Shown here piece by piece: positions 8,042-17,997 of a stretch of DNA of 64,000 bases. The position numbers and the translations under genes were made by a program. The notes beneath the pieces were generated by a model, which was given only the letters and a program-made list of their open reading frames with translations, was not told where the DNA came from and did not search any database. Source of the DNA: Escherichia phage allfine; sequence record MN850633.1; one strand, written 5' to 3'. Numbering within the stretch: the stretch's first letter is position 1; every line of letters begins with the position of its first letter.

Positions 8042-8117
8042 TGGAGAATCCGAAGGGACTCGAACCCTTATAAACCTGTTTTGCAGACAGGCACATAGCC
8101 ATTTCTGTCACGGATTC
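8042..8117 (-). tRNA. tRNA-Cys (GCA)
   Basis: Hand fold: acceptor GAAUCCG/CGGAUUC, anticodon stem CCUGU/ACAGG with loop CUGCAAA, T-loop UUCGAGU, encoded CCA. Confidence 0.7.
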
Positions 8118-8121
8118 AAAT

Positions 8122-8214
8122 TGGAGGAAGATACCAGACTTGAACTGGTACACCGATTTCTCAGCTACTGGCAGTTTAGCAAACTGCTCCCTTACCTTTT
8201 AGGGTTAATCTTCC
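8122..8214 (-). tRNA. tRNA-Ser (GCU), type II with long variable arm
   Basis: Acceptor GGAAGAU/AUCUUCC, anticodon loop UUGCUAA, T-arm ACCAG-UUCAAGU-CUGGU, 93 nt. Confidence 0.6.
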
Positions 8215-8215
8215 A

Positions 8216-8950
8216 TTATTTCTGTAATGCGCTCTTCATTTCTGGTGTTGCAATAGTGTCAATTACACCAGTTTTACAGGCATCATCAAACCAGTCTGGT
8301 AAGATACCTGCTAAGAACCCATTGATATTCGTTTTAAGGTACTCTGCAATAAGGGCAGCTTCTTCTTCAATCATCTGCACAACTTCATCTGCATAAGCTG
8401 TAATCTTTGAGATACCTTCATTAATCTTACTGACAGCTTGGTTAGCTAAATCAGAAACAGTATCAAGACCCTTGTCAATAGCGTCTTGTAAGTCACTTAA
8501 TACATCGTTAACACTCTCTAGTGTACTGTTAATCGTATCAATAGCTTTTTGACCATATTCTGTAGCAACACCCATAATACCACTGAACGGTGTACAACCA
8601 ACTTGTTCTCCTGCTGCACCCATAACATTGGAATATCCCTTTGCTACCTGCATACGTGATGAAAACTCATCAATAGACTTTTGACCGTAGTCTGTTAGGG
8701 TCTTAGTAGTTGCTGTAGTGCTTGTAAGGCTTGTTGTAAAGCTGTTTAGAAGGACTGTTGTAAGTCCAGCAGCAACAAGTTTCTCCTGCATTGTAGGGTC
8801 TGTTACAGAACTAATAGAGCTTACAAGTGATGTAGAAGCAGCTACGGTTCCACCGAGAACTGCTGCACCAGTAATAAGTGGGTTAGAAAACCCTTTACCG
8901 GTTTTTAAGAGATTAAAAATCTCCTTACCTTGTTCTGTCATCTCTTTCAT
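8216..8950 (-). CDS. hypothetical Ser/Thr-rich protein (about 244 aa from internal Met)
   Basis: ORF 8216-9013 in track; upstream 60 nt overlaps a tRNA, so start placed at Met 22 (8950); embedded inside tRNA array. Confidence 0.45.
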   Translation of the reverse strand: MKEMTEQGKEIFNLLKTGKGFSNPLITGAAVLGGTVAASTSLVSSISSVTDPTMQEKLVAAGLTTVLLNSFTTSLTSTTATTKTLTDYGQKSIDEFSSRMQVAKGYSNVMGAAGEQVGCTPFSGIMGVATEYGQKAIDTINSTLESVNDVLSDLQDAIDKGLDTVSDLANQAVSKINEGISKITAYADEVVQMIEEEAALIAEYLKTNINGFLAGILPDWFDDACKTGVIDTIATPEMKSALQK

Positions 8951-8969
8951 TAAGCACCTTTGAAATTGG

Positions 8970-9043
8970 TAGTCCAGTGGGATTTGAACCCTCTTCTCAT
9001 GTTTTTCAGACACGCGCTTTAACCATATAAGCTACTTGGACTA
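8970..9043 (-). tRNA. tRNA-Phe (GAA), imperfect fold
   Basis: T-arm GAGGG-UUCAAAU-CCCAC, acceptor UAGUCCA/UGGACUA, anticodon stem CGUGU/ACAUG loop CUGAAAA; D-arm register ambiguous. Confidence 0.5.
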
Positions 9044-9048
9044 TAAAT

Positions 9049-9124
9049 TGGGGTGACCTACGGGATTTGAACCCGTATAGACCATGTTCACAGCATGGGT
9101 CATTACCATTTATGATAAGGCCAC
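9049..9124 (-). tRNA. tRNA-His (GUG)
   Basis: Acceptor GUGGCCU/AGGUCAC, D-stem UCAU/AUGA, anticodon stem CCAUG/CAUGG loop CUGUGAA, T-arm ACGGG-UUCAAAU-CCCGU, CCA encoded. Confidence 0.8.
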
Positions 9125-9155
9125 ATTTAAGGACTCTCGTAAGAATCCTTAGAAG

Positions 9156-9231
9156 TGGCAGCGGCATAAGGATTTGAACCTTAATAAGACAGCTTCAGAG
9201 ACTGCTGCATTGCCAGTTATGCTATACCGCT
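9156..9231 (-). tRNA. tRNA-Gln (CUG)
   Basis: Acceptor AGCGGUA/UGCCGCU, D-stem GCAU/AUGC, anticodon loop CUCUGAA, T-arm UAAGG-UUCAAAU-CCUUA. Confidence 0.7.
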
Positions 9232-9236
9232 AAATT

Positions 9237-9315
9237 TGGTACTCCATATCGGATTCGAACCGATACATAACACAGATTTTAAGTCTGGCCTCTCTGCCAA
9301 TTGGAGTAATGGAGC
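9237..9315 (-). tRNA. tRNA-Leu (UAA)?, Leu-like D-loop AAUUGGCAGAG but short variable region
   Basis: T-arm AUCGG-UUCGAAU-CCGAU, acceptor GCUCCAU/AUGGAGU, anticodon loop CUUAAAA; atypical for a type II tRNA. Confidence 0.45.
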
Positions 9316-9317
9316 AT

Positions 9318-9392
9318 TGGCGGGGGATGTTGGAATTGAACCAACTTCTTCGATTTCAAAGACCGAGGTTTTAACCTTGTAAACTAATCCCC
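9318..9392 (-). tRNA. tRNA-Gln (UUG)
   Basis: Anticodon stem UCGGU/AUCGA loop CUUUGAA, T-arm GUUGG-UUCAAUU-CCAAC; acceptor pairing imperfect. Confidence 0.55.
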
Positions 9393-9401
9393 TTTAAATC
9401 T

Positions 9402-9959
9402 TTACTTTCTCAGTGGATGAATAAAGAATGCCAACATAACTCTTTCCCTTGAGAATGCTCTTTCTTCTGGGACAACACTTTTTAGTTTCCATCCAATATA
9501 AATTCTCCAGTAAAATTGTTTACCAAAGATTTTAATTGATGGGATAAAAGCGAATAATCCCCAAGCATTCCTGTTCCACATTAGGAGATAACCAGTCTGA
9601 TTATCTTCAGGGTTAGAACTTACGTTGATATTACCTTTCCACTTAGTAACATCTTTTACATCTCTTCCTAACACATGGTAAGAGAAGTTATAAGCTTTGT
9701 TTCTCCAGAGCCATCCAACTCTTTGCATGTAGACACCTAGTTTACCAATCCATCTAATATTAGCCCATCTTTTAACGTGACCTTCATCACCATCAATTGG
9801 GTTGTCATAGGTCTCCATCCATCTGAATCCAAAAGGTAGATGTCCTTTCTTCTCACTGTAGAATGGAACTACAAAAGGTGCTAAGATAACTGCTAAGATT
9901 GCTGCAAATGGCTCTAACAAAGCTAAGAAAATCCATGAAGCATACTTCAAATATCTCAT
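9402..9959 (-). CDS. hypothetical membrane protein (185 aa)
   Basis: ORF with strongly hydrophobic N-terminus (two predicted TM helices), Trp-rich; embedded in tRNA array. Confidence 0.45.
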   Translation of the reverse strand: MRYLKYASWIFLALLEPFAAILAVILAPFVVPFYSEKKGHLPFGFRWMETYDNPIDGDEGHVKRWANIRWIGKLGVYMQRVGWLWRNKAYNFSYHVLGRDVKDVTKWKGNINVSSNPEDNQTGYLLMWNRNAWGLFAFIPSIKIFGKQFYWRIYIGWKLKSVVPEERAFSRERVMLAFFIHPLRK

Positions 9960-9978
9960 CTAAATAGCCTCTTTAAAT

Positions 9979-10054
9979 TGGCGCAGGATAAGGGATTCGA
10001 ACCCCTATTAACAGCTTCGTAGACTGTTGCTCTATCCATTTGAACTAATCCTGC
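9979..10054 (-). tRNA. tRNA-Arg (ACG)
   Basis: Acceptor GCAGGAU/AUCCUGC, D-stem GUUC/GAGC, anticodon stem ACAGU/GCUGU loop CUACGAA, T-arm AGGGG-UUCGAAU-CCCUU, CCA. Confidence 0.8.
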
Positions 10055-10059
10055 AAAAT

Positions 10060-10137
10060 TGGTGTTCCAAGACGGATTCGAACCGTCACTAGTACAAGGT
10101 TTGAGCTTGCATCCTCTGCCAATTGGGATACTGGAAC
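10060..10137 (-). tRNA. tRNA-Leu (CAA)?, Leu-like D-loop, short variable region
   Basis: Acceptor GUUCCAG/UUGGAAC, anticodon stem GCAAG/CUUGU loop CUCAAAC, T-arm GACGG-UUCGAAU-CCGUC. Confidence 0.5.
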
Positions 10138-10138
10138 A

Positions 10139-10213
10139 TGGTACTCACTAAAGGACTTGAACCTTTTTCTTCATCTTGTAAGGGTGATGTTTTACCATAT
10201 AAACTAAGCGAGT
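10139..10213 (-). tRNA. tRNA-Val (UAC)
   Basis: Acceptor ACUCGCU/AGUGAGU, D-stem GUUU/AAAC, anticodon loop CUUACAA, T-arm AAAGG-UUCAAGU-CCUUU. Confidence 0.65.
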
Positions 10214-10306
10214 ATGAAAGAGGTCTGGAGTTGTGCCGCTAACTCAACTCCGTGGAATTTGTTACGGTCTTCAGTTGACTCAAAGCGGTCTTTCACTTGA
10301 CCTCTG
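10214..10306. ncRNA. structured non-tRNA element inside tRNA array (candidate small RNA)
   Basis: Terminal 7-bp pairing AGAGGUC/GACCUCU enclosing hairpin GGAGUUG...CAACUCC; no T-arm consensus; fills gap between tRNA-Val and tRNA-Thr. Confidence 0.3.
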
Positions 10307-10309
10307 AAT

Positions 10310-10386
10310 TGGTGCTGCTCACAGGACTCGAACCTGCATTTCCATCCTTACAAGGGATGTGTAATAGCCAATTATACGAAAGCAGC
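10310..10386 (-). tRNA. tRNA-Thr (UGU)
   Basis: Acceptor GCUGCUU/GAGCAGC, anticodon stem CAUCC/GGAUG loop CUUGUAA, T-arm GCAGG-UUCGAGU-CCUGU. Confidence 0.8.
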
Positions 10387-10392
10387 ATTGTT

Positions 10393-10467
10393 TGGAGCAT
10401 CCAGAGGGAATCGAACCCTCAACCTCAGTTTGGAAGACTGTAATTTTCCCGTTTAAACTATGGATGC
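10393..10467 (-). tRNA. tRNA-Gly (UCC)
   Basis: Acceptor GCAUCCA/UGGAUGC, D-stem GUUU/AAAU, anticodon loop CUUCCAA, T-arm GAGGG-UUCGAUU-CCCUC. Confidence 0.75.
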
Positions 10468-10473
10468 ACTAAT

Positions 10474-10549
10474 TGGTGGAGAAGCAGGGAATTGAACCCT
10501 GTACTTAAGTTTGCAAAACTTATGTTTTAACCATGTAAACTACATCCCC
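10474..10549 (-). tRNA. tRNA-Ala (UGC)
   Basis: Anticodon stem UAAGU/ACUUA loop UUUGCAA; acceptor carries the G3-U70 wobble pair characteristic of tRNA-Ala; T-arm CAGGG-UUCAAUU-CCCUG. Confidence 0.8.
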
Positions 10550-10555
10550 ATTGTT

Positions 10556-10631
10556 TGGTACAGGTGGAGGGAATTGAACCCATCGTCTTACTGATTAAGA
10601 GTCAGCCGCATAACCATTTTGCTACACCTGC
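10556..10631 (-). tRNA. tRNA-Lys (CUU)
   Basis: Acceptor GCAGGUG/CACCUGU, anticodon stem GCUGA/UCAGU loop CUCUUAA; paralogous to the tRNA at 11790-11865. Confidence 0.6.
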
Positions 10632-10638
10632 ATTAATT

Positions 10639-10716
10639 TGGTAGGAGACAAGGGATTCGAACCCTCAAACATCTCGTTCTAAGCGAGATAGGTTTACCAA
10701 TTACCGTCAATCTCCC
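10639..10716 (-). tRNA. tRNA-Leu (UAG)?, atypical
   Basis: Acceptor GGGAGAU/GUCUCCU, anticodon stem UCUCG/CGAGA loop CUUAGAA, T-arm GAGGG-UUCGAAU-CCCUU; D-arm irregular. Confidence 0.5.
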
Positions 10717-10975
10717 ATTAAATCTTTTTAGAGAACTTCTAAGAACCTAAGCAACAAGGTTCCACAACAAGCTGTAATAACCTTAGAAGCCCTCTAAAAA
10801 GACCTAAAAAGGTCTTTGCATAGTCTTGTTTAATCCGGTGACTAGAACCTTTGGAGAGCTTGATATTATCTCTTCTCCGTGACACCTACTAGGTGCTTTA
10901 CTGTGCGTGTACGACAATACACTAGGGATACCAAAGCAACATCCGAATGAAGCTTGGCTTTAAATCTTATTAGGC

Positions 10976-11061
10976 GGTAAGTAAAGGAGTCGAACCCTCA
11001 CCGTATCTCTACAGTGGCAACTGTTTTCAAGACAGTTTGGCTACCATTAGCCGCTACCTAC
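10976..11061 (-). tRNA. tRNA-Ser (UGA), type II
   Basis: Anticodon stem ACUGU/ACAGU loop CUUGAAA, long variable arm, acceptor GUAGGUA/UACUUAC; boundaries approximate. Confidence 0.6.
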
Positions 11062-11075
11062 CCCTAATAAGACTT

Positions 11076-11158
11076 TGGCATGGGACGGAGGAGTTGAACC
11101 ACTTTGAAACGGTTTTGGAGGCCGTTGCTCATGCCTTAGAGTCTTAACATCGTCCCAC
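11076..11158 (-). tRNA. tRNA-like, possible tRNA-Trp (CCA), atypical 5-prime half
   Basis: Acceptor GUGGGAC/GUCCCAU with encoded CCA, anticodon-like arm ACGGC-CUCCAAA-ACCGU, about 7 extra nt in D region. Confidence 0.4.
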
Positions 11159-11301
11159 ACTATAATTCGAAGCTTACCGTATTTTCACAACACTGTAAAG
11201 CCCCTTCTCAGATTATTTACATGTTCTGGAAAACATGAGATACAGACCACCTCCTTACACGGAGACCCGATAAGGTCGTCTAAGTAATCTGCTAACTAAA
11301 T

Positions 11302-11383
11302 TGGTCGAGGCGGCAGGACTCGAACCCGCATACTCCACTTACTCGGTTAACGGCGGTTTAGAAGACCGCTGAGATACGCCCCG
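11302..11383 (-). tRNA. tRNA-like, possible tRNA-Arg (UCU), lacks canonical D-arm
   Basis: Good T-arm GCGGG-UUCGAGU-CCUGC and acceptor CGGGGCG/CGCCUCG plus CCA; anticodon arm GCGGU-CUUCUAA-ACCGC directly after acceptor; 23-nt extra segment. Confidence 0.4.
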
Positions 11384-11631
11384 TAATTATCTTTAAAGAC
11401 TCTCTTAGAAAGCCCTTAAAGATGCCCACCTTATTAATCATACCGTGGGCTAGTACGCCAAATTCTTTGATGAGGGATTGGAAGACCTCACTGGTGTTTA
11501 GCCTATCAAGCTACTGCCAGAAAAACATTGTCGTTTGCATTTATTTTAAATTTGCAAAATAGACGCTACGCAACGAAAACTAAGGTTACTATAAAGTAGT
11601 CACATCTCAATGTCAACAACTTTATTGAAAT

Positions 11632-11707
11632 TGGTACTGGTAGGTGGAATCGAACCACCGATGTTCCCTTATCAGGGGAGTGTTATAACCTTCTTAACTA
11701 TACCAGC
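11632..11707 (-). tRNA. tRNA-Ile (GAU)
   Basis: Acceptor GCUGGUA/UACCAGU, D-stem GUUA/UAAC, anticodon loop CUGAUAA, T-arm GGUGG-UUCGAUU-CCACC. Confidence 0.75.
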
Positions 11708-11708
11708 T

Positions 11709-11785
11709 TGGAGGTTCAGATGGGAATCGAACCCACATTCATAGGGCTTATGAGACCCTTGCATTACCTTATCTGCGACTGAACC
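11709..11785 (-). tRNA. tRNA-Met (CAU), elongator-type acceptor
   Basis: Acceptor GGUUCAG/CUGAACC, anticodon stem AGGGU/GCCCU loop CUCAUAA, T-arm GUGGG-UUCGAUU-CCCAU. Confidence 0.75.
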
Positions 11786-11789
11786 ATAT

Positions 11790-11865
11790 TGGTAGAAGTG
11801 GAGGGATTCGAACCCATCGCCTGTCAGATTAAAAGTCTGCCGCATAACCATTTTGCTACACTTCC
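11790..11865 (-). tRNA. tRNA-Lys (UUU)
   Basis: Acceptor GGAAGUG/CACUUCU, anticodon loop CUUUUAA, D region identical to tRNA-Lys(CUU) paralog. Confidence 0.65.
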
Positions 11866-12122
11866 ATTAAATTACCTTTGTAGATAAGCTACCCAGACTT
11901 GCTTAAGGTCTGTAGCGATGTGCCTTGTTGGGTTTAAATCTAGAATTTACCCTTTCACCCTTTGTGGTCGCATACTCACAGGTAAGCTTAATAACTTATC
12001 TACAAAGATAATTACCAGACCGTTGTTTATCATCTTAAGTGCTACCATTACACCAACTCGACATCTGCCGAGTGAAGGAATCGAACCTTCGCCTTTTCTT
12101 TACCGGAGAAATAGATTGTTTA

Positions 12123-12152
12123 AGTTTTGCTGTAAACGGTCTTCTGTAAATT
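12123..12152. repeat. repeat motif TTGCTGTAA-N2-GGTCTTCTGTAAA, copy 1 of 4 in tRNA array
   Basis: Near-identical copies at about 12205-12232, 12596-12629 and 12763-12790; CCAGACC partner forms long-range inverted repeat with GGTCTTCTG. Confidence 0.5.
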
Positions 12153-12204
12153 TGTTGAGCCAGACCAAGTTTTAAATTTTCAAAATTAAATTGGCTTGAA
12201 ATTT

Positions 12205-12232
12205 CATACATTCTTGCTGTATTTGGTCTTCT
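12205..12232. repeat. repeat motif copy 2 (TTGCTGTATTTGGTCTTCTG)
   Basis: Shares core with copies at 12123, 12596, 12763; upstream partner CCAGACCAAG at about 12163. Confidence 0.45.
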
Positions 12233-12294
12233 GCTCCTTTAAAGAATACTCGTAAGAACTCTTTAAGGGAGGGGCTAAATAGCCCTCTCAAAAT

Positions 12295-12371
12295 TGGCGG
12301 CTACGATGAGACTTGAACTCACATCATCTCCCGTGACAGGGGAGTATTTTCTCCAGTTAAACTACATAGCC
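12295..12371 (-). tRNA. tRNA-Asp (GUC)
   Basis: Acceptor GGCUAUG/CGUAGCC, anticodon stem CUCCC/GGGAG loop CUGUCAC, T-arm GUGAG-UUCAAGU-CUCAU, CCA encoded. Confidence 0.85.
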
Positions 12372-12376
12372 TTTAT

Positions 12377-12464
12377 TGGTGTGCCGTGTAGGAGTCGAAC
12401 CTACCGAGTCTCAATGACAAGGGATTTACAGTCCCCACCGCTACCATCTACGGGATAACGACAC
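12377..12464 (-). tRNA. tRNA-Tyr (GUA), type II
   Basis: Acceptor GUGUCGU/ACGGCAC, anticodon stem GGGGA/UCCCU loop CUGUAAA, long variable arm, T-arm GUAGG-UUCGACU-CCUAC. Confidence 0.75.
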
Positions 12465-12476
12465 ATTTAAATTTTG

Positions 12477-12550
12477 CGGTTAGTCAGGGATTCGAACCCT
12501 GTGCCATTCGCTTAACAGGCGACCGCACATACCTTATGTGCTTCCTAACC
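12477..12550 (-). tRNA. tRNA-Asn (GUU)
   Basis: D-stem GCAC/GUGC, anticodon loop CUGUUAA, T-arm CAGGG-UUCGAAU-CCCUG; CCA not encoded. Confidence 0.75.
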
Positions 12551-12595
12551 TTAATACATTGCCAGACCGTGTTTTTCTTTTATCCGCAAAAAGTA

Positions 12596-12629
12596 GTTTG
12601 TTGCTGAATACGGTCTTCTGTAAATTTGG
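12596..12629. repeat. repeat motif copy 3 (TTGTTGCTGAATACGGTCTTCTGTAAATTTGG) with upstream CCAGACCG partner at about 12571
   Basis: Same core as 12123 and 12763 copies. Confidence 0.5.
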
Positions 12630-12703
12630 AGGCGGGTGCAGGAGTCGAACCTGCCGATACCATGCTAATGAGACATGTGAGACGCCCTTTCTCTATACCC
12701 GCA
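12627..12703 (-). tRNA. tRNA-Met or Ile2 (CAU)
   Basis: Anticodon stem CAUGU/GCAUG loop CUCAUUA, D-stem GAGA/UCUC, T-arm GCAGG-UUCGACU-CCUGC; position 1-72 mismatch in one register. Confidence 0.6.
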
Positions 12704-12762
12704 ATTCTTAATGACCAGACCAAATATCTTCTTTGTCCGATTTCGTGTCAGATGAGTAGATT

Positions 12763-12790
12763 AAGTTTGCTGTAATTGGTCTTCTGTCAA
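12763..12790. repeat. repeat motif copy 4 (TTGCTGTAATTGGTCTTCTGTCAAAA) with upstream CCAGACCAA partner at about 12714
   Basis: Same core as other copies; on minus strand reads TTGACAGAAGACC. Confidence 0.5.
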
Positions 12791-12793
12791 AAC

Positions 12794-12871
12794 TGGCGTT
12801 CCAGAAGGGATTTGAACCCTCAAATATCCACTTTGAAAGAGTGGTGACTTTACCATTTTGTCTACTGGAAC
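12794..12871 (-). tRNA. tRNA-Glu (UUC)
   Basis: Acceptor GUUCCAG/CUGGAAC, anticodon stem CCACU/AGUGG loop CUUUCAA, T-arm GAGGG-UUCAAAU-CCCUU, CCA. Confidence 0.8.
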
Positions 12872-12878
12872 ATTAATT

Positions 12879-12955
12879 TGGTCTCTGTTGGAGGACTTGA
12901 ACCTCCGGCCTTACCGCCCCAAACGGAACGCTCTACCAAGCTGAGCTAAACAGAG
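12879..12955 (-). tRNA. tRNA-Pro (UGG)
   Basis: Acceptor CUCUGUU/AACAGAG with C1-G72 typical of bacterial tRNA-Pro, D-stem GCUC/GAGC, anticodon loop UUUGGGG, T-arm GGAGG-UUCAAGU-CCUCC. Confidence 0.8.
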
Positions 12956-13120: not shown

Positions 13121-14536
13121 TTACCAGATGTAACGGTCAATCATTACTGCTTTGAGCATTACGCTGATTGGGTCAAACTTCTCACCACCAAGCAGAGCTT
13201 TTAAAGTGGCTGGAGAGAACCCTGATACCATTGCTACACCGTTATCCTTAACAGATACTTCGCAAGTACCATTACGGTTTGCTAAGTACCAGAATACCAG
13301 TTGTGGCATCTCATATCCAGCTTTTTTGTACTTACTCTGAATTGCTTCAAAGTTTGTACGACCGTTAGCTCCATCAACCTGATTGAACTCCATATCGGAG
13401 AAGATGATAAGCTTACTTGGCATATCTTTCTGAGTCAAGTTGTTTCTTTTACCTGTTTCAAGAATGCGGTCAAAAGCTGCTTGTAAGTTAGTTGAGCCAT
13501 ATTCAACGTGTCGCATCACCTGACGATGACGGTTTCGTAAATCACCACTCAGTTCGATGAAGTGAGGGTTTGTTGAGTAAACCATTAACTCATTCTTAAA
13601 GCAACCAGTATTGCGTTCTGCTACATACAAGGCAAGTGATACACCAATATCAAGGGCAGTGATTGAACCAAGATTCACCCAAGACATTGAGCTTGAAACA
13701 TCGGTCATACACAAGATGTTCTCACCTTCTGCCATCCAGTTTGGTAGTGCTTTCCACTGCTCATTGGCAACATCTGCATTACCATGCTTGATAGACTTAA
13801 TCACATCGTATGGGTAAACAGCACCAGCGTTAATCTTAGCCTCACCCTTTGAGAGTGATTCGATGTAAGCTTTGTAACGTTCTCCATCTTTACGGTTAAA
13901 GAGCTTTTGGTAACGTGCAGCAGCGAGTGAAGGAATCTTGCTGTAGTCAATCTTACCAAACTCATTAGCAGAGATTTTTTGCTCAACTGTATCAGATAGT
14001 GCAGACAACAGTGTGCGGTACTCTTTCTCACTCAAGTTGGCAAACTTGCAGAAACGTTTTATAAACTGCTTATGACGTGGTTTGACTCGTGGTAACCACT
14101 TAGCCGCCAAACCTGCTGTTGCAGGGTCTAGTAATGCTGCTTCTAGATGTTTGAAGGCATCTGTCTCGAAACGAGTACCTACGAAGATTTTGAAGTCATC
14201 AAAACGACCAAGTTCTGCAATCTTATCCATAATGCGAAGAACCTGCGTAGGCTCTAAAACTTTGTCTTCAATCGCTTGAAGTAAAACAGTTCTGAAGGCT
14301 TTACGCTCACCCATACCTTCTCGTACATCTCGCATATGAAGCAAAATACGAACTGCAACATCAACATCCTCACGCAAAGCTTTGTAGAACAGGTCTGGTA
14401 AGATTTCTACGTTGCTACGGCTTGAACCAGCAGCTTTGTAAAAGTCTACAAGAGCAGACATTGATGAAGTATGGTTTACAGCACCATTTTCAGTTCGACC
14501 TGCATGAAGGTGCGCATGTTTAAATAATTCGCTCAT
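13121..14536 (-). CDS. vWA-domain protein, possibly TROVE/Ro60-like (471 aa)
   Basis: MIDAS-type motif MTDVSSSM followed about 100 aa later by LIIFSDMEF beta strand (vWA fold) in C-terminal third; N-terminal 270 aa helical; co-directional and immediately upstream of tRNA/tRNA-like array. Confidence 0.5.
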   Translation of the reverse strand: MSELFKHAHLHAGRTENGAVNHTSSMSALVDFYKAAGSSRSNVEILPDLFYKALREDVDVAVRILLHMRDVREGMGERKAFRTVLLQAIEDKVLEPTQVLRIMDKIAELGRFDDFKIFVGTRFETDAFKHLEAALLDPATAGLAAKWLPRVKPRHKQFIKRFCKFANLSEKEYRTLLSALSDTVEQKISANEFGKIDYSKIPSLAAARYQKLFNRKDGERYKAYIESLSKGEAKINAGAVYPYDVIKSIKHGNADVANEQWKALPNWMAEGENILCMTDVSSSMSWVNLGSITALDIGVSLALYVAERNTGCFKNELMVYSTNPHFIELSGDLRNRHRQVMRHVEYGSTNLQAAFDRILETGKRNNLTQKDMPSKLIIFSDMEFNQVDGANGRTNFEAIQSKYKKAGYEMPQLVFWYLANRNGTCEVSVKDNGVAMVSGFSPATLKALLGGEKFDPISVMLKAVMIDRYIW

Positions 14537-14617: not shown

Positions 14618-14989
14618 TTATTTTTTGAGAGTCGCTACAGCAGAGAACGTTGGTTTGTTATCTGTCTGAGACTGACCACCATTATCAGGGGTCTTCTTAG
14701 TGTCTGCTGCAATCGCTTTCATCTCACCTGCTGAGTGAGTCATGATGGTTTTACCAGCCTCCATCATCGACTTCAGGTTTACATCGTCAGTCGTCAAACC
14801 GAACTCTGCAAGCTTAGCAGCATCCCTTGTAACAACCGCCTCAAACAACTTTGCAGCAAACTCAGCAGAATTATCAATGGTCAGTTGAGCTTTTACAAGT
14901 GAGCTTTTGTTACGAGAGCCTTTTGGTCTTCCAGATGGGTTTCCAGACTGGCCTTTTTTAAACTGGCCTTTGTTTGTTCTGTTTTTCAT
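14618..14989 (-). CDS. hypothetical basic protein with GNPSGRPKG motif (123 aa)
   Basis: N-terminal KGQSGNPSGRPKGS motif seen in small phage DNA-binding proteins; first gene of minus-strand unit. Confidence 0.5.
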   Translation of the reverse strand: MKNRTNKGQFKKGQSGNPSGRPKGSRNKSSLVKAQLTIDNSAEFAAKLFEAVVTRDAAKLAEFGLTTDDVNLKSMMEAGKTIMTHSAGEMKAIAADTKKTPDNGGQSQTDNKPTFSAVATLKK

Positions 14990-16199: not shown

Positions 16200-16246
16200 G
16201 TGTGAATAGGGGCTGATGCCCCTTTAACTATTTATAAGGATATTTA

Positions 16247-16618
16247 ATGAAAGCTAAGAGTGCAAAAGACTTTTATTGCTTCCTACAATCCTATATCAAT
16301 TCCGTGCAAAATGGTGAAAGGTACAACCTTAATGATGTTATCCCAACACCTTTGACATGGAGACTCAGTAAATGGCCTGAAGAAGATATTACACCAACAA
16401 GCGAACAGCGTACCTACAAACCTGAAATCAATATTCCAGATTCTGAGAATCTATTATATCCAATGTTCCATATCGTTGGTCTTGGAAGATTCCTTATGGA
16501 TATCCAGTATGTAATTGGTAAAGGTTATAAGGTTAAAGTTATTGTTGTTGGTGATGTATCTCCGCATCACAAAGGTTATTTTAGACTAAACGCACATTTA
16601 GAGGCTAAAAAGAAATGA
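16247..16618 (+). CDS. hypothetical protein, paralog of N-terminal domain of next gene (123 aa)
   Basis: Shares Y..F..I..V..G.RY...........W/LSKWPE.DI....E...YKP.......LLY with N-terminus of 16615-17499. Confidence 0.5.
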   Translation: MKAKSAKDFYCFLQSYINSVQNGERYNLNDVIPTPLTWRLSKWPEEDITPTSEQRTYKPEINIPDSENLLYPMFHIVGLGRFLMDIQYVIGKGYKVKVIVVGDVSPHHKGYFRLNAHLEAKKK

Positions 16619-17499
16619 TTAAAGCAAAGACTTACCCAGACTTCAAAGAGTTTGTGAAGGGTTTCATTGCAAATGTAAAGGCTGGTAAGAGATATGATTT
16701 TAGAACATATCAAGAGGCTATTTTACCACTTACCTATAGTTCATATTGGCCTGAAGCTGATATTGCAGAAGTTGAGAAGTTTGACTACAAACCAGACTAC
16801 AAAGTTCCATTTAGTGATGAATTGCTTTACAGTGTTGGTGCACAGATGAGAACTGCTGATTTCTTCATGGATTTGCAGTATGCAATCATCAATGGTAAAG
16901 ATGTTGACACAATTTACTGTGAATGGTTGGCAAGAGTTAAGCCGTTCTCAATGTTGAATGCTAAGTTGAAGGATGCTATTAAGCCACCATCAATTACTCA
17001 GCAACCAACAGGTCAAACAGTCAATGAGGGTGGCACACTTACTCTAAGCATTCTAGCAACTAACGCCACTGGATATCAATGGAAAAAGGATGGTGAGGAC
17101 ATCCCTAGTGCCAATTCTGCAACTTACACAAAACAGTCAGTAGCACCTTCTGACGCTGGTTCATACACTTGTGTTGTATCTGGAGAGGGTGGAACAAGTG
17201 TTACCTCAGATGCAGCAACAGTTACTGTGAATGCACTTCCAGTAATCACTCAACAGCCAACCAATCAAGAAATCACTGAAGGTGATACCTTAACGCTGAA
17301 TGTTGTGGCAACAGGTGCAACAAGTTACCAGTGGAAGAAAGGTGAGGAAGACATCCTCGATGCAACTACTGCAACTTACACCAAAGAAGGTGCAACCGCT
17401 GCTGATTCAGGAAGCTACACCTGTGTAGTTACTGGTGCAGGTGGCTCTGTAACATCTAACGCAGCAACAGTTACAGTTAATCCAGCAGGGGAGGCATAA
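16615..17499 (+). CDS. protein with two tandem Ig-like domains (294 aa)
   Basis: Two about 80-aa repeats ITQQPT.Q...EG.TLTL...ATGA.SYQWKK.GEDI...TSATYTK......DSGSYTCVV.G.GG...S.AATVTVN typical of Ig-like domains; N-terminal domain paralogous to previous ORF. Confidence 0.6.
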   Translation: MIKAKTYPDFKEFVKGFIANVKAGKRYDFRTYQEAILPLTYSSYWPEADIAEVEKFDYKPDYKVPFSDELLYSVGAQMRTADFFMDLQYAIINGKDVDTIYCEWLARVKPFSMLNAKLKDAIKPPSITQQPTGQTVNEGGTLTLSILATNATGYQWKKDGEDIPSANSATYTKQSVAPSDAGSYTCVVSGEGGTSVTSDAATVTVNALPVITQQPTNQEITEGDTLTLNVVATGATSYQWKKGEEDILDATTATYTKEGATAADSGSYTCVVTGAGGSVTSNAATVTVNPAGEA

Positions 17500-17963
17500 T
17501 GCAACTCTCAAGAAAAGGTTTAGAGGCTATTAAGTTCTTTGAAGGTCTGAAGTTAGAGGCTTACGAAGACTCTGCCGGAATCCCAACAATCGGTTATGGA
17601 ACAATCCGTATTGGTGGGAAGCCTGTTAAGATGGGTATGAAAATTACGGCTGAACAAGCTGAACAGTATCTTCTTGCAGATGTTGAAAAATTCGTTGCAG
17701 CAGTTAACAAAGCTATCAAGGTTCCAACTTCTCAGAATGAGTTTGATGCACTTGTAAGTGAAACATACAACATTGGTATCACGGCTATGCAGGACTCCAC
17801 ATTTATCAAGCGCCACAATGCTGGTAATAAGGTTGGTTGTGCAGAAGCTATGCAGTGGTGGAACAAGGTCACAGTCAAAGGTAAGAAGGTCACTTCAAAC
17901 GGCCTGAAAAACAGACGTAGAATGGAAGCTGACATTTATCTTGACAGTGTATATCCAAAGTAA
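17499..17963 (+). CDS. lysozyme/endolysin, T4-lysozyme-like GH24 (154 aa)
   Basis: N-terminal catalytic pattern LEAYEDSAGIPTIGYG aligns with T4 lysozyme E11/D20/T26 region. Confidence 0.85.
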   Translation: MQLSRKGLEAIKFFEGLKLEAYEDSAGIPTIGYGTIRIGGKPVKMGMKITAEQAEQYLLADVEKFVAAVNKAIKVPTSQNEFDALVSETYNIGITAMQDSTFIKRHNAGNKVGCAEAMQWWNKVTVKGKKVTSNGLKNRRRMEADIYLDSVYPK

Positions 17964-17973
17964 TATCTTCATA

Positions 17974-17997
17974 GGCTCCTTCGGGAGCCTTTTTTAT
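17974..17997 (+). terminator. rho-independent terminator
   Basis: GGCUCC-UUCG-GGAGCC hairpin followed by UUUUUU immediately after lysozyme stop. Confidence 0.8.

Follow-up and report, generated by a model that had tools for sequence, protein, structure and literature searches.

A conserved, fibre-less paralog of the Hex-Dec capsid decoration protein encoded beside its Ig-bearing partner in Escherichia phage allfine

The capsids of Escherichia phage Bas63 (9NCF; PMC12609058) and Shigella phage Sf14 (9C2D and 9C3A; PMC11821841) carry a monomeric Hoc-like decoration protein, named Hex-Dec in Bas63 and gp20 in Sf14. A capsid-binding domain (CapBD) of two pseudo-C2 lobes, made up of the N-terminal ~118-122 residues, plugs the centre of the 60 edge hexamers (quasi-3-fold, pentamer-proximal) of the T=9 shell and not that of the 20 facet-centre hexamers; the immunoglobulin (Ig)-like domains project outward and are disordered (PMC12609058, PMC11821841). 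In Sf14 the anchor consists of Arg79 and Arg107 of gp20, which form salt bridges with Asp221 of three subunits of the major capsid protein (MCP). Displacement of the Asp221 side chains explains why gp20 leaves the facet-centre hexamers free (PMC11821841). Here we describe two overlapping open reading frames (ORFs) in 64,000 nucleotides (nt) of Escherichia phage allfine (MN850633.1; one strand, 5' to 3'), a stretch referred to below as the window. ORF A (16247-16618, 123 residues) and ORF B (16615-17499, 294 residues) both lie on the + strand, at the coordinates given by a first-pass annotation of the same DNA. ORF B encodes a hexamer decoration protein of the Hex-Dec/gp20 type and ORF A a CapBD-only paralog of it without Ig domains. 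Many Felixounavirus genomes, such as LinBro, momo and ASO1A, match the region at 95-98% identity, and the genome is that of a Felixounavirus, a Felix O1-like myovirus.

In a phmmer search of the PDB, ORF B aligned over residues 1-289 to the Bas63 protein (9ncf_S, E=8.8e-245) and matched the Sf14 protein (9c2d_S/9c3a) with E=1.4e-166; the match to phrog_3995 had E=6e-171. Its CapBD (residues 1-122; 16615-16980, + strand) aligns nearly unchanged to the modelled part of 9ncf_S and includes Arg79 and Arg107, which are invariant in the Hex-Dec-family alignment. The partner residue is encoded in the window as well: the N-terminus of the Felix O1 MCP finds in tblastn, at 100% identity, a 368-residue MCP (794-1900, - strand), the docking partner of Hex-Dec, whose residue 221 is the D within KIRDAYL (codon 1238-1240). 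The position of ORF B, upstream of the lysin gene and more than 10 kb from the head genes, matches the synteny of Hex-Dec, whose gene in Bas63 had already been remarked to lie "more than 10 kb outside of the structural module" (PMC12609058). ORF B is very probably the ortholog of Bas63 Hex-Dec and Sf14 gp20, a confidence that covers its identity and anatomy and does not extend to the function of ORF A. By homology to these orthologs, ORF B is predicted to occupy the edge hexamers in this phage too: its CapBD would insert as a monomer at the hexamer centres, held by salt bridges between Arg79/Arg107 and Asp221, and would project a flexible string of two Ig-like domains. By analogy with T4 Hoc, these domains probably mediate weak adhesion or aggregation.

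The first-pass annotation had supposed that the Ig-like domains decorate virions, and this is where the orthologs are found. They are seen on the capsid by cryo-electron microscopy (cryo-EM; 9NCF_S, 9C2D_S), the Felix O1 ortholog gp36 (31.6 kDa) was recovered from CsCl-purified virions with 44% coverage in mass spectrometry (MS; PMC3185647), and Sf14 gp20 was likewise detected in virions by MS (PMC11821841). Of the two things named there as speaking against the idea, absence from virions and a housekeeping fold, neither was found for ORF B. The two tandem Ig-like repeats are also real. Domain 1 (residues 124-207; 16984-17235, + strand) and domain 2 (residues 208-290; 17236-17484, + strand) are 66% identical to one another (E=3e-35). 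Pfam recognises Ig_3 (E=1.4e-23) and Ig_2 (E=1.6e-18) in two stretches each, and also I-set, domain 1 being assigned to Ig_3/I-set. AlphaFold2 (AF2) models residues 124-290 as two beta-sandwiches with a predicted local distance difference test score (pLDDT) of ~95. In the AF2 model of the complete protein, built from a shallow alignment, the CapBD is poorly predicted (pLDDT 34-69), so that the structure of this domain rests on the solved orthologs. The main element, ORF B, is thus an already known protein, explained by the cryo-EM work of 2025, and adds little new; the residual interest of the locus lies in its conserved, fibre-less paralog.

ORF A and the N-terminus of ORF B share 38% identity over 101 residues (BLASTP, E=2e-16). 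In a MAFFT alignment of 17 sequences ~120 residues can be matched between the two families, 30 of the columns being the same in every sequence, and each ORF matches the PHROG family of the other (ORF A against phrog_3995, E=5e-15; its own family, phrog_4463, is listed as of "unknown function"). The common N-terminal domain proposed by the first-pass annotation is well founded on these grounds. In phmmer, residues 2-118 of ORF A match 9ncf_S with E=8.6e-12. Structure prediction, which had been suggested there as a check, gave an AF2 model of ORF A of moderate confidence (pLDDT 75, predicted template modelling score 0.75, from a 17-sequence alignment). When this model was compared with the PDB by Foldseek, only the solved CapBDs 9c2d_S and 9ncf_S matched (template modelling score 0.69, probability 1.0, ~124 aligned columns), the next entry having E>1. 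Since the model matches these two CapBD chains only, ORF A is regarded as a complete CapBD and nothing else.

The ORF A family differs from Hex-Dec most where Hex-Dec touches the capsid. At 44 aligned positions each family is at least 90% conserved and yet differs from the other. Within 4 residues on either side of Hex-Dec Arg79 and Arg107, 13 of 18 positions are family-specific, compared with 31 of the 104 elsewhere (Fisher p=8.5e-4); clustering is also found when the distance is set to 3 (p=0.005) or 5 residues (p=0.0008). Arg79 of Hex-Dec corresponds to Gly78 in ORF A, a residue present without exception in the 48 distinct ORF A-type sequences, the distant metagenomic homologue P0098 among them. 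The hairpin loop LARVKPF of Hex-Dec is replaced by SP[HQ]HKGYF (SPHHKGYF here), with an insertion of one residue; the Pro of the K-P-[FY] motif is lost, and a basic His (Arg in P0098) and an invariant Lys109 remain. Five distant outgroup proteins, P0100-P0104, allow the direction of change to be read. P0100-P0103 score 36-55 bits on the hidden Markov model (HMM) of the Hex-Dec family against 18-28 bits on that of the ORF A family, whereas P0104 slightly favours the ORF A model (30 against 24 bits), and K-P-[FY] is kept in all five. ORF A is the derived copy, because most outgroups favour the Hex-Dec model and all keep the motif that ORF A has lost. Divergence of the contact elements followed by their fixation indicates a changed specificity rather than decay. 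An argument from charge, according to which ORF A would suit an acidic hexamer centre, was dropped as uninformative: the protein carries +3.8 here and its Mooglevirus and Suspvirus orthologs about -2.

ORF A is full-length in 232 of 252 matching phage records (tblastn, 72-99% identity), which belong to Felixounavirus, Mooglevirus and Suspvirus. Bas63 and Sf14 both possess intact orthologs, bas63_0125 and Sf14_gp21, each with a 4-nt overlap with Hex-Dec, and an overlap is kept in Felix O1, Bas63, Sf14, Sf13, Moogle, mistaenkt and JH2. In ESCO49 (L009 2301-2675) and mistaenkt (L008 2301-2675) a 1-nt change in an A-run moves the stop of ORF A 4 nt further down, giving 124 residues and an 8-nt overlap; the overlap itself is kept and its form is free to vary. 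Two of the deposited records are peculiar. GU169904.1, "Staphylococcus phage SA1" (147 kb), contains a 98%-identical copy of this Enterobacteria-phage locus, and MG969406.1 (109 kb) has three matching places; both are probably chimeric or contaminated assemblies. A word-indexed search with the CapBD reached close relatives only, and an exhaustive profile search over 1.84 billion representatives was needed for 7 distant members; it returned 13 family members in all. Among them is P0098, a standalone copy of 122 residues that shares 45% identity with ORF A. On its metagenomic contig (L015, 87 kb) it lies directly upstream of a 298-residue protein composed of a CapBD and two Ig domains, followed by lysozyme. 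A second CapBD copy is lacking beside P0100, P0103 and P0104. The duplication behind ORF A is old but specific to one clade. In the scheme proposed here, the CapBD alone would have been duplicated before Felixounavirus, Mooglevirus, Suspvirus and one more distant lineage diverged from their common ancestor; ORF A would have lost its Ig domains or never had any, and purifying selection would have maintained it ever since as an accessory gene that is not essential.

It might be argued that ORF A is what remains of a tandem duplication, without function and in decay. It can be dispensed with, and its rate of evolution is about 3 times that of its paralog. Across nine diverged genomes, the median ratio of nonsynonymous to synonymous substitution rates (dN/dS, Nei-Gojobori) is 0.117 for ORF A, 0.036 for the CapBD of Hex-Dec and 0.151 for Ig domain 1, as compared with 0.045 for the lysin and 0.097 and 0.169 for flanking genes of unknown function. 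ORF A is under purifying selection and is a working gene, less constrained than Hex-Dec. A ratio like that of the neighbouring genes, over dS of up to 1.4, argues against decay, as do the 44 positions fixed within the family and the conservation of length, start codon, Shine-Dalgarno sequence and overlap in the 232 full-length records, in three genera and in L015. Decay, extremely unlikely in our estimate, is ruled out by the selection analysis.

Dispensable ORF A nevertheless is. Nineteen records matched only through Hex-Dec and form a clade (REP11, Z31, EcF-vB) with a remnant of ORF A, in which a single shared lesion comprises a lost start codon, frameshifts and an internal deletion of ~220 bp; Hex-Dec and lysin are intact in this clade. 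In phage SUSP1, CRISPRi-ART knock-down of the ortholog AVU07_agp126 was without effect (fitness -0.91, "Not Fit"; PMC11879866). The lysozyme was "Not Fit" in the same screen (PMC11879866), which means that the screen has false negatives.

In Felix O1 the genes follow one another as lysin gp35, "tail protein" gp36 and then a 372-nt ortholog of ORF A, which by sequential numbering is gp37. ORFs 36 and 37 were assigned to the late class, maximal at 60 min, together with tail genes 72, 73, 76 and 77 (end-point reverse transcription PCR (RT-PCR), PMC3185647); ORFs 35 and 38 stand in the preceding row, probably that of 25 min. ORF A is apparently expressed late together with Hex-Dec. No description or interpretation of ORF A was found in the literature searched. 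The main text of the Bas63 paper (PMC12609058) contains neither "paralog" nor "duplication", and that of the Sf14 paper (PMC11821841) neither "gp19" nor "gp21". The accessible text of the PhageMaP study (PMC11482910) names g123 and g124 and not g125, and the HIDEN-SEQ and transposon preprints include no Ounavirinae. Most deposited records call ORF A a "hypothetical protein"; some, and UniRef, label it "tail protein", thereby implicitly catching its likeness to Hex-Dec. ORF A apparently represents a new, undescribed subfamily of the Hex-Dec capsid-binding domain.

The role put forward here for ORF A, tentatively, is that of a fibre-less ligand of hexamer centres, acting at a site or in a capsid state that Hex-Dec does not use. 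The candidate sites would be the 20 facet-centre hexamers or, transiently, the hexamers of the prohead. Several observations weigh against such a ligand. The capsid maps of 9NCF and 9C2D, at 3.1-3.2 Å, do not model ORF A although both phages encode it, and the facet-centre hexamers are reported to be empty in Bas63 and Sf14 (PMC12609058, PMC11821841). The ORF A ortholog is absent from the MS list of Felix O1 virions, in which proteins of 9.7-13.7 kDa were detected (PMC3185647), and a re-annotation of SUSP1 attaches the flag "FelixO1 MS" to the Hex-Dec ortholog and not to that of ORF A (PMC11879866). The VpaE1 text names only gp54, gp58 and gp68 as virion proteins missing from the Felix O1 list, and the wV8 paper has no virion list resolved by gene. 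Arg79, one of the two published anchors, is lost. The late timing comes from end-point RT-PCR and the equation of gp37 with ORF A from gene order, and the AF2 model, as stated above, is of moderate confidence. The negatives in virion lists and maps are not decisive, because the 25% coverage cut-off of the Felix O1 list also removed a tail fibre and a baseplate protein (PMC3185647) and because imposed symmetry blurs a monomer on a 3-fold axis.

An alternative of comparable, and equally tentative, standing is that ORF A is no capsid ligand and never enters virions, being a cytoplasmic helper, such as a chaperone that keeps the CapBD of Hex-Dec soluble or unbound until heads mature, or a neofunctionalised protein. 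The missing entry in the Felix O1 list, two capsid maps without extra density, the lost Arg79 and the rebuilt hairpin loop are all in keeping with it. In the accessible part of the Sf14 report (PMC11821841), ORF A is likewise not listed among the particle proteins, and tight translational coupling to Hex-Dec would suit a dedicated helper. Arguing against an obligate chaperone is the intact Hex-Dec of the clade that lost ORF A. Positive evidence pointing to another partner is lacking, the MS cut-off that dropped known structural proteins weakens the argument from absence, and in a related lineage (P0104) a single Ig-less CapBD protein fills the slot, which shows that a "bald" CapBD can stand alone. 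The probability left over by the ligand and the helper belongs to other roles.

In a more specific form of the fibre-less ligand proposal, ORF A caps the 20 facet-centre hexamers on the icosahedral 3-fold axes and Hex-Dec takes the 60 edge hexamers by means of Arg79 and Arg107. Symmetry averaging would smear out a monomer on a 3-fold axis, and a 14-kDa protein present in 20 copies could be missed at the cut-offs used in MS. We consider this version unlikely. If it were true, the paralog pair would read quasi-equivalence, and the published capsid models would be short of one component.

Whichever role applies, ORF A is a conserved, selected paralog of a structural domain that two near-atomic virion structures and several fitness screens of therapeutic-candidate phages have left unassigned. 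Should it bind capsids at any site, the published capsid models are incomplete, and the pair illustrates how specificity for a hexamer class is re-tuned by a few changes in loops, which would help in engineering T=9 shells for display and vaccines. Should it not bind capsids, it exemplifies how a structural domain can be taken over for a non-structural task.

ORF A is preceded by the Shine-Dalgarno sequence AAGGA at 16236-16240 and overlaps ORF B by 4 nt (ATGA); the stop codon of ORF B in turn overlaps the start of the endolysin gene by 1 nt (TAATG). Relative to ORF A, ORF B lies in the -1 frame, and the junction in the window reads CTAAAAAGAAATGA, so that a programmed -1 frameshift at the A-run before ATGA could in principle join the two as a CapBD-CapBD-Ig protein. 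The heptamer is non-canonical, however, and the run varies among relatives, with GCTAAGAAATGA in Moogle, GCTAATAAAAATGA in mistaenkt and TAATG in L015. In ESCO49 the 1-nt deletion at the junction only shifts the stop, the frame of ORF B contains a TAA 9 nt upstream of its ATG, and the cryo-EM models begin at Met1 of Hex-Dec. Such a fusion has practically no likelihood and was rejected, the junction sequence not being conserved.

The endolysin is the third gene (17499-17963, + strand), a T4-type lysozyme of glycoside hydrolase family 24 (PF00959 Phage_lysozyme, E=6.7e-41; phrog_7 endolysin), which according to Pfam is a complete single-domain enzyme. A terminator-like hairpin, GGGGC-TGAT-GCCCC followed by TTT (16209-16225, + strand), forms a boundary between an upstream gene of 196 residues and ORF A. 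It was missed by a simple terminator scan because its T-run is short; it is kept in REP11 and Z31, and the identical hairpin sequence is listed as a rho-independent terminator in Table 2 of the Felix O1 study (PMC3185647). A second hairpin resembling an intrinsic terminator, of 7 bp (5 GC) with a T-run (17973-17990, + strand), closes the unit on the other side. A search for a shared late-promoter motif gave no support, since CTATTTATAAGG upstream of ORF A had 9 matches against 7.45 expected within the window, and a sigma-70 promoter scan scored under the shuffle mean. ORF A, Hex-Dec and endolysin are best explained as a late, tightly coupled three-gene unit.

The first-pass annotation correctly placed ORF B next to the endolysin and outside the structural module, as coordinates and synteny confirm; the MCP gene is ~14.7 kb away, on the far side of the tRNA array. 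Its hint that the adjacency reflects a cell-wall-targeting function did not hold. According to this idea, the Ig-bearing protein, with or without ORF A, would target the host cell wall and work with the adjacent endolysin. Favourable to it are the 1-nt overlap with the lysozyme gene, the persistence of the CapBD-gene/lysozyme adjacency in distant relatives, and the Bas63 g124 knockout, which was less fit only on E. coli S17-1, the authors speculating about adherence to the cell surface (PMC11482910). The orthologs, however, are physically on the capsid (PMC12609058, PMC11821841), and the shared domain docks on Asp221 of the MCP and not on peptidoglycan. Pfam and NCBIfam scans revealed no LysM, SH3, PG_binding or other wall-binding family in ORF A or ORF B, and the lysozyme is already complete. 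In the Felix O1 RT-PCR, lysin 35 is in a temporal class different from that of 36 and 37, and adhesion of Ig domains to a surface would act from outside, on virions, as in Hoc. The cell-wall reading, highly unlikely by our estimate, is largely refuted, and the adjacency is best explained as conserved synteny within a unit of three overlap-coupled genes bracketed by hairpins. With regard to the endolysin gene itself, PhageMaP found Bas63 g123 to be more dispensable in several strains with defence systems, and g123 was examined there as a possible trigger of the Ec67 retron (PMC11482910); by numbering, g123 is the endolysin next to Hex-Dec.

Between the head genes and the Hex-Dec block lies a 25-gene tRNA array (8042-12955, - strand), as is usual in Felix O1-like phages. 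Two divergent genes immediately upstream of the block (13121-14536 and 14618-14989, both - strand) encode a 471-residue DUF2828/DUF7788 protein, annotated in some records as a von Willebrand factor A-type or RNA-binding protein, and a DUF5681 protein. This pair adjoins the slot of the CapBD gene even in the most distant relatives (L017, L023). On two distant Ounavirinae-like contigs (L015 11510-12369; L016 8967-9826), a Gad1-family (anti-Gabija) gene lies ~4 kb downstream of lysozyme; an ORF of that size is lacking at the equivalent position of the window (21.7-25.5 kb).

Hex-Dec is dispensable in the laboratory, since knock-down of the SUSP1 ortholog was "Not Fit" (PMC11879866) and Bas63 g124 was non-essential on three hosts; it was more important on E. 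coli S17-1 (PhageMaP, PMC11482910). In most deposited records ORF B is entered as a "putative tail protein". This label, which most Felix O1-like genomes carry, is wrong, and the Bas63 paper calls it incorrect (PMC12609058). Its probable source is the first annotation of Felix O1, "HK97 major tail subunit", which reflects similarity of the Ig domains only. ORF B was considered and rejected as a major tail or tail tube protein: its matches to PHROG tail families (phrog_158, 853, 3575) are limited to residues 96-208, the Ig part. The number of Ig domains is 1 in JH2 and mistaenkt, 2 in this phage, Felix O1 and Sf13, 3 in ESCO49 and Sf14, and 4 in Bas63; variation of this kind has been published (PMC12609058, PMC11821841). 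Very closely related phages differ in this number on an almost unchanging CapBD, a pattern suggesting that the tandem repeats coding for the Ig domains often recombine unequally. Z31, already without ORF A, has its Hex-Dec gene (L002 2498-3070) split into ORFs of 134 and 55 residues; this phage may be without Ig fibres altogether, or the record may hold a sequencing error.

ORF B works like pb10 of phage T5 and like T4 Hoc but is not homologous to either in the anchor. It matches the T5 "decoration protein" entries 5lxk_A and 8zvi_a only through an Ig domain (residues 127-207), the anchor domains are dissimilar, and a pb10 paralog pair has not been reported. The relation to T4 Hoc is of the same kind. 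The PHROG families "Hoc-like head decoration" match only residues 120-292 of ORF B, again the Ig part, and the anchor of Hoc is C-terminal (domain 4), whereas that of ORF B is N-terminal. In T4, we know of no standalone paralog of the Hoc anchor domain. The Hex-Dec anchor is topologically distinct from that of Hoc, larger and pseudo-C2 symmetric (PMC12609058). ORF B is an analogue of T4 Hoc and stands outside the Hoc family, because its anchor is at the other end and topologically distinct.

The proteins P0100-P0104 of distant Ounavirinae-like metagenomic phages belong to the same CapBD family (joint profile, E 2e-9 to 6.5e-5). In P0100, P0103 and P0104 the CapBD gene occupies the same slot, after a gene resembling the upstream 196-residue one, and in P0104 it also precedes lysozyme. 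All five are single-copy proteins; P0104 joins the CapBD to a K/S/E-rich tail without Ig domains, and the others join it to Big_2-like or Ig domains. They represent the state before the duplication that made ORF A. Closest of all are Bas63 and Sf14, which share with the window the gene order ORF A, Hex-Dec, lysin and its position far from the structural module. Bas63 Hex-Dec and Sf14 gp20 have the CapBD of ORF B, near-identical over residues 1-122, with Arg79 and Arg107 and the same Asp221 in the MCP, and differ from ORF B only in having four and three Ig domains, respectively, instead of two. With ORF A these solved CapBDs have the fold in common, ORF A being without Ig domains and without Arg79 and having a rebuilt hairpin loop.

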